Source: Planctomycetota bacterium
Lineage (GTDB): Bacteria > Planctomycetota > UBA11346
Assembly: GCA_016745075.1 (NCBI GenBank)
Contig: JADGDD010000008.1
Coordinates: 10,678 to 74,677, forward strand
Reading direction: 5' to 3'
DNA length: 64,000 nucleotides
The notes beneath the pieces are model-generated. The model was not told the origin of the DNA. It ran no database searches and saw only the letters and a list, made by a program, of their open reading frames with translations. This document shows, piece by piece, positions 24,172 to 49,930 of the stretch. Each line of letters starts with the position of its first letter. Position 1 is the first letter of the stretch. Made by a program: the position numbers and the translations under genes.

Positions 24172-24247
<76 letters not shown>

Positions 24248-24308
24248 ATATCTATTTTCAATTTAGCGTTTTAAGAACACTTGTAACCGCTTCTCAATAA
24301 CACTGTAG

Positions 24309-24384
24309 TGGTGGCCTCGGGCAGATTCGAACTGCCGACACAAGGATTTTCAGTCCTCCGCTCTACCAACTGAGCTACAAGGCC
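24309..24384 (-). tRNA. tRNA-Phe (anticodon GAA), CCA encoded
   Basis: 76-nt cloverleaf folded by hand: acceptor GGCCTTG/CGAGGCC, anticodon loop CT-GAA-AA, T-loop TTCGAAT, 3' ACCA. Confidence 0.95.
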
Positions 24385-45202: not shown

Positions 45203-46156
45203 ATGTACCGTGAGACAATCAAAATTATGGACTGCACCGTTCGTGACGGCGGGCTAATGAATGCATGGCAATTTGATGATGACTTTGTGAAAGGTATTTA
45301 TACCGCCTGTGTTGATGCTGGCATTGATTACATGGAGATTGGCTACAAAAGCAGCGAGCATGCGTACTCACGTGAAGAAAATGGTCCGTGGAAGTTCTGT
45401 GATGAAACCGATTTGCGCCGTATTGTTGGTGACAATAATACAGATCTTAAACTGTCAGCCATGGCTGACATTGGTCGAATTGACGAAGAAGATATTCCAC
45501 AAGCAAGCGACAGCGTCATCGATATGCTGCGCGTCGCTTGTTATACCCATCAGGTAGATAAGGGTATAGCCCTTGCTGAACACGTTTTAGACAAGGGCTA
45601 TGAAACCACGCTTAACATTATGGCTGTTTCTACCACCATGGAACGAGACCTTGATGAAGCGCTAAATGATATTGCTAAGAGCCGTGTGAAAGCAGTTTAT
45701 ATTGTTGATAGCTTTGGTTCAATGTACAGCGAACAAATCCAAAGCCTCTGCGAAAAATACCGCAGTATCTTAGGTGATGATGTCACCCTTGGTTTTCATG
45801 GCCATAACAACCAACAATTGGCCTATGCAAATACAGTTGAAGCCGTTATTCGTGGCGTTGATATGTTAGACGGTTCCTTGCTTGGCATGGGACGTGGAGC
45901 CGGAAACTGCCCTACAGAATTGTTACTCGGCTTTTTGAAAAACCCAAAATACAGTTTACGTCCTGCTCTTCAGGCCATTCAAGACCAGATGATTCCAATG
46001 CAACAAAAAGTAGATTGGGGCTACCACCTCCCCTACATGATTGTTGGCATGCTGAATCAACACCCACGCTCTGCCATGGCCTGCATGGATGGCGACGACC
46101 GTAACAACCTAACCGGATTCTTTGATAAAGTCACAGACGAAGCTATTATTGATTAA
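45203..46156 (+). CDS. HMGL-like (DRE-TIM metallolyase) aldolase family protein, 4-hydroxy-2-oxovalerate aldolase-like
   Basis: IKIMDCTVRDGG N-terminal block; GFHGHNNQQLAYANTVEAV...LGMGRGAGNCPTE metal-site blocks typical of the pyruvate carboxyltransferase/HMGL-like fold. Confidence 0.65.
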   Translation: MYRETIKIMDCTVRDGGLMNAWQFDDDFVKGIYTACVDAGIDYMEIGYKSSEHAYSREENGPWKFCDETDLRRIVGDNNTDLKLSAMADIGRIDEEDIPQASDSVIDMLRVACYTHQVDKGIALAEHVLDKGYETTLNIMAVSTTMERDLDEALNDIAKSRVKAVYIVDSFGSMYSEQIQSLCEKYRSILGDDVTLGFHGHNNQQLAYANTVEAVIRGVDMLDGSLLGMGRGAGNCPTELLLGFLKNPKYSLRPALQAIQDQMIPMQQKVDWGYHLPYMIVGMLNQHPRSAMACMDGDDRNNLTGFFDKVTDEAIID

Positions 46157-46159
46157 ACT

Positions 46160-46533
46160 CCATCTTCGGTGATTTGCTCCTCGGAAAGCGGACGTCCTCG
46201 TCCGCTAGCCACAGTGACATACTTTCGAACAGGGACATTACTGATCTCTTCCTATTCTACCATATATCCTAGGCGGACGGGGACGTCCGCCCTCCGGGCT
46301 ACTAAACCCACGCTCTGCTATCGCAACAACTTCACCAGATTTTTTGATGAAGTTACAGACGAAGCTATTATTGATTAAACTCCGCCCTCGGTGACAGGGA
46401 CATTAGCCCGGAAAGCGGACGTCCTCGTCCGCTAGCGATAGCCCCTGTGAAAATCTTTCAAGCAGGGACATTACTAATCTCTTCCTATTGTATCGTATAT
46501 CCTAGGCGGACGGGGACGTCCGCCCTCCGGGCT
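46160..46533. repeat. REP array 1: two ~190-bp units, each with an inverted REP pair (GCGGACGTCCTCGTCCGC and GCGGACGGGGACGTCCGC); unit 2 begins with a duplicated copy of the upstream gene's last ~44 nt
   Basis: REP-A at 46188-46205 and 46415-46432; REP-B at 46273-46290 and 46506-46523; 46339-46382 repeats 46118-46161 with few mismatches. Confidence 0.8.
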
Positions 46534-47562
46534 TTAACTCAATGCGGTCAAACAATGTTCAGCTCCGTTCGTCGCTCTATCTAAATAGGTCTTTATGTTT
46601 TCCAGTGGGACATCTCCACTAATGCTATGTGATGGCGATAAAATATAACCGCCGCCCGGCATCATTATATTAATCAACTCTTCTGTATCTTTGCGCACAT
46701 CATCTATACTACCAAAGGGCATAGTTTTTTGCACGCTGAGTCCACCCCAAAACGCAAGCTTATTACGGTATTTTTCTCTAAGCTTCCAAATATCCATTGC
46801 TTCTGGTTGGAATGGGTCAAATACATCTACACCGCATTCAACAATATCGTCCATTAAATCTTCTACATTACCACAACAATGAAGACTAACAAGTAGCCCA
46901 GCCTCTTTGGCAACCGCACAACTTTGCGCAAAGCGTGGTTTAATAAATTCTCGCCACATTGGTGGAGAAATAAGCGTACCAAGCTGACTGCCCCAATCAT
47001 CACCAAAGTGCACACAGTCTACACCAAGGGCGGCGGCGTTTTTTATAACGGCATCGTTATACTCGGTAATTTTATCTAATAATTCGTGAATGAATTCTGG
47101 CTCTGCAATGAGATCCATCATAAATTCTTCCATACCATATAAAGCCCAAGCTCGTTCAAAGAGAGAAAAACCAATGCTAACCATATGAAAATGATCTGGA
47201 TACTTTTCTTTATCACGTCGAATGAAATCATAGACGGGAAGATCGTTAGGATTCGGAAATTCATAATCGCCAAATTCTGCATCTTCTAATACTGGCTGAT
47301 CAACGATACCCAGTGTCTTGTCTTGCGTTTTATTCCAGACCACCCCAAAGTAATCTTTAAAATACCCCGGCTTCACTTCTTCCCAGCCGTTATTCGTATG
47401 AGAAGCAACCACACCACTTCCGGTTTCAAGCACAGGATCAAAAGGACGACCAAGAAATCTCTCAATATTCTCTTTCGCTTCTACAGTAAATTTAATAGAA
47501 TGCGGCAATTGTTCTGGTTCTTGATGTGTAATGGCTTGGATAAAGTCGCTACGGTAAGTCAT
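46534..47562 (-). CDS. Uroporphyrinogen decarboxylase (URO-D)-like family protein
   Basis: Typical URO-D family C-terminal region ...LHCCGNVEDLMDDIVECGVDVFDPFQPEAMDIW...; start moved to ATG 47562 preceded by AGGAG (listed ORF extends to 47838 through a hydrophobic, non-homologous leader). Confidence 0.7.
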   Translation of the reverse strand: MTYRSDFIQAITHQEPEQLPHSIKFTVEAKENIERFLGRPFDPVLETGSGVVASHTNNGWEEVKPGYFKDYFGVVWNKTQDKTLGIVDQPVLEDAEFGDYEFPNPNDLPVYDFIRRDKEKYPDHFHMVSIGFSLFERAWALYGMEEFMMDLIAEPEFIHELLDKITEYNDAVIKNAAALGVDCVHFGDDWGSQLGTLISPPMWREFIKPRFAQSCAVAKEAGLLVSLHCCGNVEDLMDDIVECGVDVFDPFQPEAMDIWKLREKYRNKLAFWGGLSVQKTMPFGSIDDVRKDTEELINIMMPGGGYILSPSHSISGDVPLENIKTYLDRATNGAEHCLTALS

Positions 47563-47722
47563 CTTCAGAGCTCCTATCAGGAAAGATATTTCTATAAGGC
47601 GAGCGGCTTTGCTCATCATACATTTTACCTGCACTCCCTTTATGATCAACAAAAAGTACAAGAGATGATCGTTTCTGATCAAAAGCATTGACCCCAAGCA
47701 TTTTATCAGCAAGGATAGTACA

Positions 47723-48148
47723 ATGGAAACAGATGACCTCATCATTTCTAACCGCGTCACCATCCCCCAACGGGAAATAACCATGACGGCAATCCGAGCG
47801 CAGGGTGCCGGTGGCCAACATGTGAACACGTCCTCCACAGCTATCCACCTACAATTTGATATACATGCATCATCATTACCCGCATATTACAAAGAACGAT
47901 TACTCGCCGTAAAAGACAAACGTATTTCAAGCGCAGGTATTATTACCATCAAAGCACAAGAATATCGTAGCCAAGAACAAAATCGTCAACATGCCCTCAA
48001 TAGACTTGCTGACATGATTCGTGCCGTTACCGTTGTTCAGCGTAAACGCATTGCCACACGCCCAAGCAAGGGTTCCAAAACACGACGACTCGACAGCAAA
48101 AACAAGCGTGGTCAATTAAAAGCAAGACGACGCGAACGTTTCGACTAG
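47723..48148 (+). CDS. arfB: Peptidyl-tRNA hydrolase ArfB (alternative ribosome-rescue factor B)
   Basis: GGQ motif in [16 protein letters not shown] and the basic C-terminal tail [14 protein letters not shown]. Confidence 0.85.
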
Positions 48149-48589
48149 TACCATATGTTTGTTCTCAGCCACTATTATATTCATGTCTTGATACGTCGTA
48201 TTATTGATAACCGTTCTACTGCCAAGCAACAATTCAGTTTTCACTGACGAAGGTGGGCGCAAAGTTTTACCGTAGGTTCTCACCTTTAGCACCAGTTCAA
48301 TCATTAACAGTGCTAAAAAAATGAACAAGACAGAACTGCACCGCCTACGCTCAAGCACTCGTAGCTGGGAACACAACAGATCTCCATGCACAGTTTGATA
48401 AGACAATGAAAGGTGCCATTAGTCTTGAACAAATAGAGACACTCTGGATAGAACTTCAAGAAAAAAGCAGACATAGCATTTAATTTGGGAAAGGGGAAGT
48501 TAAAACCATTAACGGGCACCGCACCACAGTGCTCCCTTTGCTGGACGGAAAAACAATCCCTTACAATTTACAGATAACCATCAATAAAA

Positions 48590-48917
48590 CAGCCGCAAGA
48601 CTGGGCATTTTCATTTTACCCGCAAGATGAATAGCTCGGAGAGCGGACGTCCTCGTCCGCTTTGGAGATACGGAAGAGTATCGATGAGGTAGGAGTAATT
48701 CTTGCGCGGATAAAAGGAACAAAGGGCTAACGCTAGCGGACGGGGACGTCCGCTTTCCGGGCTGAGGTAAAAGGAATGCCAGCGGCATGGAGAGAAGCTC
48801 GGAGGGCTAACGCTTTGGAGATACGGAAGAGTATCAATAAGGCGGGAGAAATTCTTGCGCGGATAAAAGGAACAAAGGGCTAACGCTAGCGGACGGGGAC
48901 GTCCGCTTTCCGAGCTG
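48590..48917. repeat. REP array 2 upstream of the RAYT gene; starts with a copy of the RAYT 3' end
   Basis: 48590-48640 matches the last ~50 nt of the RAYT CDS (49489-49539); REP-A at 48643-48660; REP-B at 48736-48753 and 48889-48906; the second unit has lost REP-A. Confidence 0.8.
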
Positions 48918-48960
48918 TATTTTTGCTTGTTTTGGGCTGTCGTCTTCTATTCTTTGATTT

Positions 48961-49539
48961 ATGGCGGTTCATAAAGAATGGTATGATCGTGGACATCTTC
49001 CACATTATGATACGGGAAACTGTTATCAATCTTTGACGTATCGTTTGGGAGATAGCCTCCCGCAAGCTGTTCTACAACACATGAAAAATAACGTGCTTTA
49101 TGAACCAGAACAATACCGACAAAAATTGCTACGTAAACAAATTGAACACTACCTTGATGCGGGGTATGGCTCCTGCCTTCTTGGAGAACCAGCGGCAGCA
49201 CAGGCCGTTATTGATACGTGGAAATACAATGATGGACATGCCTATCGCTTAATTGCTGGCTGTGTTATGCCAAATCATGTGCATGTTCTTATTCAAGAAC
49301 TCAGAGGACATCCGCTTGGTTCGATTATACAAACGTGGAAAAGCTACAGTGCCAGAATTATCAACAAAATATTTGCACGTTCTGGCCAACTGTGGATGCA
49401 AAGTTATTGGGATAGATATATACGCGATGATAAACATTTCTGGCGTACCGTTCATTATATCAGAGATAATCCCGTTCAAGCAGGGCTGGTAAAACAGCCG
49501 CAAGACTGGGCTTTTTCATTGTACCCGCAGGATGAATAG
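48961..49539 (+). CDS. REP-associated tyrosine transposase (RAYT; IS200/IS605-like Y1 HUH transposase)
   Basis: HUH motif PNHVHVLIQ and C-terminal catalytic block SYWDRYIRDDKHFWRTVHYIRDNPVQAGLV; flanked on both sides by REP arrays. Confidence 0.85.
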   Translation: MAVHKEWYDRGHLPHYDTGNCYQSLTYRLGDSLPQAVLQHMKNNVLYEPEQYRQKLLRKQIEHYLDAGYGSCLLGEPAAAQAVIDTWKYNDGHAYRLIAGCVMPNHVHVLIQELRGHPLGSIIQTWKSYSARIINKIFARSGQLWMQSYWDRYIRDDKHFWRTVHYIRDNPVQAGLVKQPQDWAFSLYPQDE

Positions 49540-49835
49540 CTCGGAGAGCGGACCTCCTCGTCCGCTTTGGAGATACGGAAGAATATCGATGAGGCGGGAG
49601 AAATTCTTCCGCGGATGAAAGGAACAAAGGGCTAACGCCTGCGGACGGGGACGTCCGCTTTCCGGGCTGAGGTAAAAGAAATGCCAGCGGCACGGAGGGA
49701 AGCTCGGAGGGCGGACGTCCTCGTCCGCTTTGGAGATACGGAAGAATATCGATGAGGCGGGAGAACCTCTTGCGCGGATGAAAGGAACAAAGGGCTAACG
49801 CCTGCGGACGGGGACGTCCGCTTTCCGGGCTGAGG
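49540..49835. repeat. REP array 3 downstream of the RAYT gene: two ~145-bp units each with REP-A and REP-B
   Basis: REP-A 49548-49565 (variant GCGGACCTCCTCGTCCGC) and 49711-49728; REP-B 49641-49658 and 49804-49821. Confidence 0.8.
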
Positions 49836-49887
49836 TCTTCGTGAGCCCAGAAAGATAACGCTAGCGTTATCTTTCTGGGCTCAACAA

Positions 49888-49930
49888 ACACAGCCTGTGA
49901 CTTTTGTCACAGGCTGTGTTTTATTTTATG
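49888..49930 (+). terminator. Intrinsic terminator (14-bp stem, U-tract), likely bidirectional between the REP-RAYT unit and PFOR
   Basis: acacagcctgtgac-tttt-gtcacaggctgtgt followed by TTTATTTTAT; preceded by a perfect 40-bp palindrome at 49843-49882. Confidence 0.6.

Follow-up and report, generated by a model that had tools for sequence, protein, structure and literature searches.

Is the small HUH/tyrosine transposase encoded in a stretch of planctomycete DNA the enzyme of an insertion sequence (IS), or does it form one system with the palindromic repeats that surround it? The stretch, hereafter the window, comprises 64,000 nt of contig JADGDD010000008.1 of a Planctomycetota bacterium. Its parent is a 181-kb metagenomic scaffold (ENA ERZ28566616 BORC21-1_SAMN14087006 scaffold_15), of which 10 kb on either side of the window was also examined, making about 84 kb in all. 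An earlier description made from the letters alone (the original prediction) had placed a complete unit at 48590-49835, in which a REP-associated tyrosine transposase (RAYT) is flanked by arrays of its cognate repetitive extragenic palindromic (REP) sequences. The results set out below make it very probable that the locus is a REPIN-RAYT system, the REPINs being inverted doublets of REPs, in an uncultured planctomycete. As such it is an ordinary case of a known bacterial system, and one more example of it from a moderately AT-rich member of the Planctomycetota.

A RAYT Rather Than an Insertion Sequence Transposase

The gene at 48961-49539 (+) encodes a protein of 192 residues which, as judged by profile matches and predicted fold, is a full-length REP-associated tyrosine transposase and not an IS200 protein. 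It passes the NCBIfam equivalog for REP-associated tyrosine transposases (NF047646, REP_Tyr_transpos; 89.2 bits, cut-off 80) and falls below the cut-off of the IS200 equivalog (NF033573; 28.5 bits, cut-off 55), while Pfam Y1_Tnp is matched with an E-value of 1.1e-9. An alignment of the window protein with 22 homologues locates the HUH motif at H106-V-H108 and the catalytic-type tyrosine at Y166 within YIRDNP; H106, V107, H108, Y166 and N170 are invariant across all 23 sequences. The open reading frame (ORF) is intact and full-length relative to these homologues.

The closest solved structure by sequence is E. coli TnpA-REP (4ER8, chain 4er8_A; phmmer E 2.5e-7, 34 bits). In this alignment vmPNHVHVL lies over vlPEHMHCI at the HUH motif and HYIRDNPVQAGLVKQPQDWAFS over DYIYINPVKHGWVKQVSDWPFS, with YIRDNP of the window protein matching YIYINP of the E. 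coli protein. An AlphaFold model based on the 23-sequence alignment (mean pLDDT 87.9, pTM 0.81) retrieves the same chain as its top PDB match in Foldseek (E 8.2e-8), and the IS200, ISDra2 and IS608 transposases come next. Relative to the E. coli protein, the model has an extra helical segment of approximately 45 residues (about 35-66) between strand 1 and the core. The original prediction had recognized a RAYT by its HUH motif and C-terminal tyrosine and had proposed alignment to the RAYT/TnpA(REP) families as a check; both the identification and the check hold, since the RAYT profile is passed and 4ER8 is the best match by sequence and by fold.

The family is large and its members are often annotated RayT, yet the closest homologue among 5.8 billion proteins is only 52% identical. 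Across the roughly 84 kb examined, tblastn finds one full RAYT copy together with a 16-residue remnant, which corresponds to a 49-nt copy of the gene's 3′ end described below. There is no tnpB among the neighbouring genes. The RAYT gene looks native, because its GC content of 42.7% is close to the 45.1% of the window; the REPINs are richer, at 54-61%. RAREFAN assigns to RAYT group 2 those proteins with an E-value below 1e-30 to E. coli YafM, and the value obtained here by phmmer against the 4ER8 sequence is 2.5e-7, which places the window protein outside group 2 by this rule. High-copy flanking 16-mers have been described only for RAYT groups 2 and 3, with approximately 12-31 copies for groups 1, 4, and 5 (Bertels et al., 2017, PMC5581495). 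In annotation, the 192-residue ORF is to be entered as a RAYT and not as an IS transposase.

REPs and REPINs of the Window

What are the repeats? The window contains the palindrome GCGGACG-N4-CGTCCGC at 11 places, where 0.04 would be expected from shuffled sequences. The extended 24-nt pattern CGGARRGCGGACGTCCYCGTCCGC (CGGARR-GCGGACG-TCCY-CGTCCGC), searched with up to three mismatches, returns the same 11 sites against an expectation of 0.00. They begin at 46182, 46273, 46409, 46506, 48637, 48736, 48889, 49542, 49641, 49705, and 49804, and their orientation alternates strictly between plus and minus, in keeping with the inverted pairs that had been predicted. Each REP is made up of a tag (CGGARR), a 7-bp stem (GCGGACG/CGTCCGC) and a loop (TCCY).

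The REPs are organized into six units of about 120-131 nt, inverted doublets whose tags point outward and whose REPs lie 67-75 nt apart. Two are found upstream of the RAYT gene, two downstream of it and two after a gene for an aldolase (HMGL-like). As single strands, each of the five intact doublets forms a single long hairpin whose stem measures approximately 29 bp, at energies of -25.7 to -41.2 kcal/mol and z-scores of -4.7 to -8.2 relative to dinucleotide shuffles.

Of the two upstream units, R1 (48633-48763) is intact, with REPs at 48637-48660 (+) and 48736-48759 (-) and a folding energy of -33.7 kcal/mol (z -5.3). The other, R2 (48798-48916), ends 44 nt short of the RAYT start codon and is degenerate: its right REP at 48889-48912 (-) is intact, but the left REP hairpin is gone, replaced by GCTAACGC with a net deletion of 10 nt in the alignment. 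The left end of R2 (48798-48820) carries GGCTAACGC(T), a 10-mer that normally sits just 5′ of right REPs, and for this reason the change points to template switching or gene conversion inside the REPIN more than to simple decay. Downstream, R3 (49538-49668) overlaps the RAYT stop codon by 2 nt and has REPs at 49542-49565 (+, one mismatch) and 49641-49664 (-) (-35.5 kcal/mol, z -5.5). It is followed, 163 nt from start to start, by R4 (49701-49831), with REPs at 49705-49728 (+) and 49804-49827 (-) (-37.2 kcal/mol, z -5.4).

The remaining pair lies downstream of the aldolase gene, 2.4 kb away, where the original prediction had also seen the same REPs. A1 (46180-46300) has REPs at 46182-46205 (+) and 46273-46296 (-) and a z-score of -4.7. 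A2 (46405-46533), with REPs at 46409-46432 (+) and 46506-46529 (-), folds at -41.2 kcal/mol (z -8.2) and stops one base before the stop codon of a convergent URO-D gene. Both REPIN loci are thus situated between convergent genes, aldolase and URO-D in one case and RAYT and PFOR in the other. When the aldolase REPINs are aligned with those that flank the RAYT gene, only the REP ends of approximately 29 nt are held in common and the interiors are unrelated. Conserved ends with differing interiors fit the idea that the ends are what is recognized, and would hardly result from segmental duplication alone.

In place of the classical GTAG tag the window has GGAG or GGAA, one base from the stem. GGAR nevertheless behaves as a variant tag, because it occupies the position that GTAGC, GGAGC, or GGACC takes before an identical hairpin in other genomes. 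Two further ideas about the repeats were tried and set aside. A CRISPR array does not fit repeats that alternate in orientation, intervening sequences that are 92-94% conserved and a neighbourhood with no cas genes. A strand asymmetry of G-T wobble pairs, considered as evidence of an RNA role, proved inconsistent between the two loci and was dropped.

Duplications That Built the Arrays

The arrays on the two sides of the RAYT gene have a common origin. The final 49 nt of the RAYT gene, with the stop codon, recur as a non-coding copy at 48587-48635 (+), which agrees with 49492-49540 at 46 of 49 positions. A duplicated block has this copy as its left edge, to the left of which similarity ends abruptly. 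The complete upstream block (48587-48917: RAYT 3′-end copy, R1, linker, R2) is identical to 49492-49832 at 305 of 341 positions. The upstream array is therefore a segmental copy of the downstream one, and the locus has the order X-Y-X, in which Y consists of the promoter region and the first 531 nt of the RAYT gene. The copy of the gene's 3′ end at the start of the upstream array had been noticed in the original prediction, and the bounds given there were essentially right, the element proper spanning 48587-49832. Its description of arrays flanking the gene stands in so far as REPINs are present on both sides, and misleads where it implies independent flanks.

A second, tandem duplication is found behind the aldolase gene, where 46062-46300 (gene 3′ end, 16 nt and A1) corresponds to 46306-46533 with 191 of 239 positions identical. 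The 5′ flank of the second unit (46306-46394, +) is a copy of the aldolase gene 3′ end plus these 16 nt and matches 46062-46172 at 86-89% identity with a 22-nt gap. In both duplications the block ends on its right exactly at a REPIN's outer tag and on its left within a coding 3′ end; the blocks have diverged by 7-20%. They may have arisen by slippage or by unequal recombination at the hairpins. Growth of arrays by duplication of a 5′ flank together with a REPIN is a feature already known. Ordered REPIN clusters in Pseudomonas fluorescens SBW25 consist of tandem units of this kind, with clusters beside each RAYT (Bertels and Rainey, 2011, PMC3116915), and a survey of GTAG REPs describes tags-outward dimers 20-100 bp apart, degenerate GTAG tags and the reiteration of clusters along with flanking DNA (Di Nocera et al., 2013, PMC3733652). 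In the window this mode of growth is seen cleanly, the duplicated unit being the 3′ end of a gene together with a REPIN.

An independent assembly of run SRR11072027, from Logan, contains a 2158-nt contig identical to window positions 46504-48661, including the junction with the RAYT 3′-end copy, and this contig breaks exactly inside a REP at both ends. The junction is therefore real, and the REPs act as repeated k-mers in the assembly graph; it is because of such repeats that metagenome assemblies break here. The ORFs predicted at 46169-46378 (+), 48561-48788 (-), and 49460-49891 (-), of 69-143 residues, come from reading through REPIN repeats and are not to be entered as genes. The C-terminus of the first of them is the duplicated aldolase C-terminus (...FFDEVTDEAIID).

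REPs Beside Homologues and Across Phyla

Is the association of this RAYT with tagged hairpins peculiar to the window? Six homologues were inspected in their own contigs, and in five of these contexts the RAYT gene has beside it a GC-rich hairpin with a tag of the (CT)GGGAGC or GGGAC type. The homologue P0002 (52% identical; L127) has one CTGGGAGC-GCGACCG-TCT-CGGTCGC on each side, in inverted orientation. P0015 (51%; L137) has REPINs on both sides (GGGAGC-GCCGACG-TCCC-CGTCGGC), overlapping the 3′ end of the gene; the stem GCCGACG/CGTCGGC is a compensatory variant of the window stem. REPIN arrays are present upstream and downstream of P0007 (L132; GGGAC-GCGCGAC...), and P0040 (L133) has one downstream REPIN and one tagged REP-like hairpin upstream. 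Beside P0034 (L138) a CTGGGAGC-GCCGGCT-TCC-AGCCGGC REPIN is found upstream and REPs of the same type downstream. The exception is P0057 (L134), where repeat arrays of a different sequence type occupy both sides. Compared with these tags, the window REP (CTcGGAGaGCGGACG... vs. CTGGGAGCGCGGACG...) differs at two tag positions. Each of these five contexts has its own co-varying tag and hairpin, and the adjacency of RAYT and REP is therefore systematic; the recurrence of one scheme beside homologues in other phyla, 45-52% identical to the window protein, argues that the window architecture is typical of its RAYT clade.

The REP core itself recurs much more widely. When GTDB genomes were scanned for the bare 18-mer, which is not a systematic survey, at least 119 stretches were found; among the matches listed these belong to unrelated, mostly GC-rich genomes, and the source genome is not one of them. 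Among the same matches, the exact 18-mer GCGGACGTCC[CT]CGTCCGC is multi-copy in metagenome-assembled genomes (MAGs) of many phyla, with at least 13 loci in Thermoanaerobaculia DASVLC01, at least eight in Planctomycetota JANLHZ01, at least six in Azotimanducaceae OZ241908, and at least five in Opitutaceae JAEUHA01. It is likewise multi-copy in Acidobacteriaceae, Cloacimonadales, Bdellovibrionales, Labrys, and Prevotella. A tag of the form G[G/T]A[G/C/A]N directly precedes the 18-mer at 92 of 143 sites among the matches listed, the commonest being GGAGC (41), GTAGC (15), GGACC (10), GGAAC (9), and GTACC (8). Streptomyces-type matches are without a tag and look like chance. In one Acidobacteriota MAG (L074) the REP lies inside the 3′ end of the gene for a RAYT homologue 47.5% identical to the window protein, and in a Terracidiphilus MAG (L048) it lies 340 nt upstream of a homologue that is 35% identical. 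By these matches the REP core of the window is not private to its lineage, because the same 18-mer is multi-copy across phyla and is found beside RAYT homologues in the two MAGs just named. GTAGC-tagged copies of the 18-mer appear to link the window REP to the classical GTAG superfamily. Di Nocera et al. (2013, PMC3733652) likewise report GTAG REPs in the PVC superphylum, and REP families common to "evolutionary distant microorganisms."

A broader proposal can be made only tentatively. A clade of RAYTs of approximately 190 residues, outside group 2, might carry a cross-phylum REP code, with a tag of the (CT)GGGAGC/GGAG type, a GC-rich stem of 7 bp and TCC(Y) as the loop; among the matches listed, MAGs with several copies of the identical 18-mer GCGGACGTCCYCGTCCGC come from Acidobacteriota, Planctomycetota, Verrucomicrobiota, Cloacimonadota, Bdellovibrionota, Proteobacteria and others. 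If this were true, REPIN-RAYT systems would occur beyond RAYT groups 2 and 3 and their REP sequences would not be private to single lineages, and either very ancient conservation or horizontal spread of RAYT and REP would be implied. Whether such systems occur beyond the two gammaproteobacterial RAYT groups is a question on which the shared scheme of tag plus hairpin has a bearing.

A different arrangement of related sequence was seen in a Candidatus Cloacimonadales MAG (CAXXSY010000004.1; L077 6452-6854). Five direct copies of GGGAAC-GCGGACGTCCTCGTCCGC are spaced at 77 nt, with one gap of 154, and have conserved flanks. This tandem array, with its copies in the same orientation, is unlike the inverted doublets of the window; it may consist of REPs or be a coding repeat.

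Comparison With Known Systems and Proposed Mechanism

The nearest well-described relative is E. coli TnpA-REP/YafM with its REP-BIME sequences (RAYT group 2, 4ER8). The HUH and tyrosine motifs and the C-terminal YIxxNPV...DW block align, the E. coli protein is the best structural match, its gene is flanked by cognate REP hairpins and each REP consists of a 5′ tag and a GC-rich stem-loop. The two systems differ in that sequence similarity (34 bits) is far from the RAREFAN value of 1e-30, the window protein has the helical segment at H35-66, the tag is GGAR rather than GTAG, the window REPINs are symmetric with a 67-75 nt spacer and the host is a planctomycete. With the group 3 REPIN-RAYT system of P. 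fluorescens SBW25 (Bertels and Rainey, 2011, PMC3116915) the window has in common inverted REP doublets that form long hairpins, clusters beside the RAYT and the ordered build of these clusters from tandem 5′ flank and REPIN units. However, SBW25 has hundreds of dispersed REPINs per family, against six doublets at two neighbouring loci here.

The GTAG REP superfamily and its REPtrons include examples from the PVC superphylum, Rhodopirellula baltica and Opitutus terrae. As the survey describes them (Di Nocera et al., 2013, PMC3733652), they resemble the window REPs in their 6-9 bp stems and short loops, in tags-outward (HH) dimers 20-100 bp apart between convergent genes, in clusters reiterated with flanking DNA, in tags degenerate at positions 2-3 and in REPs running into the 3′ end of the transposase gene. 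The tag variants listed in its text (GYAG, GYRG, GTRG, GTMG, GTGG) do not include the (C)GGAR of the window. IS200/IS605 TnpA proteins (IS608, ISDra2) have the same HUH/Y1 fold and motifs, and recognition of subterminal hairpins on single-stranded DNA would be a further likeness. They are set apart by the IS200 cut-off, which the window protein does not reach, by its single copy in the roughly 84 kb examined, with no neighbouring tnpB, and by the nature of the window repeats, which are non-autonomous doublets and not IS ends.

With the protein family, motifs, fold, REP and REPIN anatomy, hairpin potential, duplications and the same architecture around homologues established, how might the system work? 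The mechanism of TnpA-REP and IS200/IS605 TnpA serves as a homology model (Messing et al., 2012, PMC3479197). By analogy, the RAYT, a single-domain HUH/Y1 nuclease, would bind the REP hairpin and its 5′ tag on single-stranded DNA, the tag CGGARR being presumably a GGAG-type variant of the classical GTAG tag. Cutting and rejoining would proceed through a 5′-phosphotyrosine link to Y166, with a metal held by H106 and H108. The REPIN would be the mobile, non-autonomous unit, moved in trans, and the RAYT gene itself would stay in place and not be copied. A second process, tandem or segmental duplication of 5′ flank plus REPIN units, enlarged the arrays and took along 49 nt of the RAYT 3′ end and approximately 95-111 nt of the aldolase 3′ end. 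Catalytic activity, mobilization in trans and any host or RNA role are inferred.

Copy Number and Alternative Explanations

Several observations weigh against an active, widespread REPIN-RAYT system. At up to three mismatches there is no REP outside 46182-49827 in the approximately 84 kb examined: every REP lies within 3.7 kb of the RAYT gene, and the two sites that hold the six doublets are separated by 2.4 kb. In JGI metagenome contigs the tagged pattern had five matches, all on unrelated contigs of 64-70% GC. One doublet, R2, is already decayed, no recent activity is visible because the duplicated blocks are 7-20% diverged, and the tag is not the canonical GTAG. High-copy repeats, moreover, are reported for RAYT groups 2 and 3 only (Bertels et al., 2017, PMC5581495). 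The original prediction had called the element dispersed; one extra locus nearby, behind the aldolase gene, is what remains of this, and dispersal in the sense of a genome-wide REPIN population is weakly supported. These observations would suit a relic or low-copy system, in which a co-opted, single-copy RAYT persists, REPs have been multiplied only by local duplication or recombination, the aldolase locus is likewise local and no genome-wide population exists. Both arrays are demonstrable duplications that include gene 3′ ends, and flanking copy numbers of about 12-31 are what RAYT groups other than 2 and 3 are reported to have. We regard this as the most serious alternative and yet a rather doubtful one: the common ends and unrelated interiors of the aldolase REPINs are what end-recognizing mobilization predicts, the Logan assembly breaks exactly in REPs, as it would for repeated k-mers, and the part examined is less than half of the 181-kb scaffold. 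That the hairpins are primarily RNA elements of the host, stabilizing 3′ ends of mRNA or terminating transcription between convergent genes, with the adjacency of a Y1 gene incidental, is unlikely. All arrays do lie directly downstream of genes and between convergent ones, the hairpins are very stable, RNA would tolerate G-T pairs in the stems and many REPs are argued to act as RNA (Di Nocera et al., 2013, PMC3733652). An incidental neighbour would not, however, be expected to have its own co-varying tag and hairpin in five of six homologue contexts, even with the different repeats of L134; a separate canonical terminator is present at 49886-49921, and no Rfam family is matched. An RNA role would in any case be compatible with a REPIN-RAYT system and not an alternative to it.

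An autonomous insertion sequence of the IS200/IS605 type, with the flanking hairpins as its left and right ends, is very improbable. It would draw on the fold held in common with IS608 and ISDra2 TnpA, and on the fact that REPIN arrays in direct orientation place same-strand hairpins at both ends. Yet the RAYT model is passed and the IS200 model is not, there is one copy in 84 kb with no tnpB among its neighbours, and a diverged duplication lies where an IS would have defined ends. The GC content of the gene matches the host, and its homologues occupy unrelated single loci amid housekeeping genes. Least probable of all is an assembly artefact, in which the arrays were mis-joined or collapsed in the metagenome scaffold. 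The Logan assembly does break at the REPs and is without a complete RAYT gene product, and the internal order of the arrays is given by one assembly alone. On the other hand, identity over 2158 nt confirms the junction with the RAYT 3′-end copy, differences of 7-20% between copies allow reads to distinguish them, and the RAYT ORF is intact and full-length against its homologues. A REPIN-RAYT system, its REPINs recognized by their ends and its arrays enlarged by duplication, accounts best for the locus.

Neighbouring Features and Host

Between R4 and the PFOR gene two further inverted repeats are found. A perfect palindrome of 42 nt (49842-49883; TGAGCCCAGAAAGATAACGCTAGCGTTATCTTTCTGGGCTCA) has 21-nt arms and no loop and is unique in the window; the TAACGCTAGCG at its centre also occurs immediately inward of the right REP in R1 and R2. 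The palindrome is followed by a strong intrinsic terminator-like hairpin (49886-49921) with a 16-bp stem and a T-run, placed between the RAYT/REPIN array and the convergent PFOR gene of 1523 residues. This terminator may act in both directions, since A's flank its other side. On the other side of the element, 48310-48590 (+, in the frame of 48151) looks like a decayed gene, with a sub-threshold match to DUF3887 (E 0.0016, 19.5 bits, cut-off 31.8) and an in-frame stop near 48482. Its frame continues into the RAYT 3′-end copy, so that the duplicated block abuts a pseudogene.

All named top matches of the window's IMP dehydrogenase are proteins from Planctomycetota MAGs, at 70-75% identity, and the best homologue of PFOR is 70% identical. 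These identities argue that the host is an uncultured, sparsely sampled planctomycete. The relative with the 70% identical PFOR keeps the nuo-PFOR synteny and has neither RAYT nor REPs at the syntenic site, at a distance too great for dating the insertion. The only Rfam and ARAGORN matches in the window are tRNA-Ala(GGC) and tRNA-Phe(GAA), side by side at 24172-24384 (-), and the REPINs correspond to no RNA family known to these scans. On the scaffold, approximately 2.5-5.5 kb to the left of window position 1, two adjacent genes on the same strand (L130 4507-5553 and 6497-7543) encode IS110-family transposases of 348 residues (DEDD_Tnp_IS110 and Transposase_20), and the genome therefore also has conventional insertion sequences.

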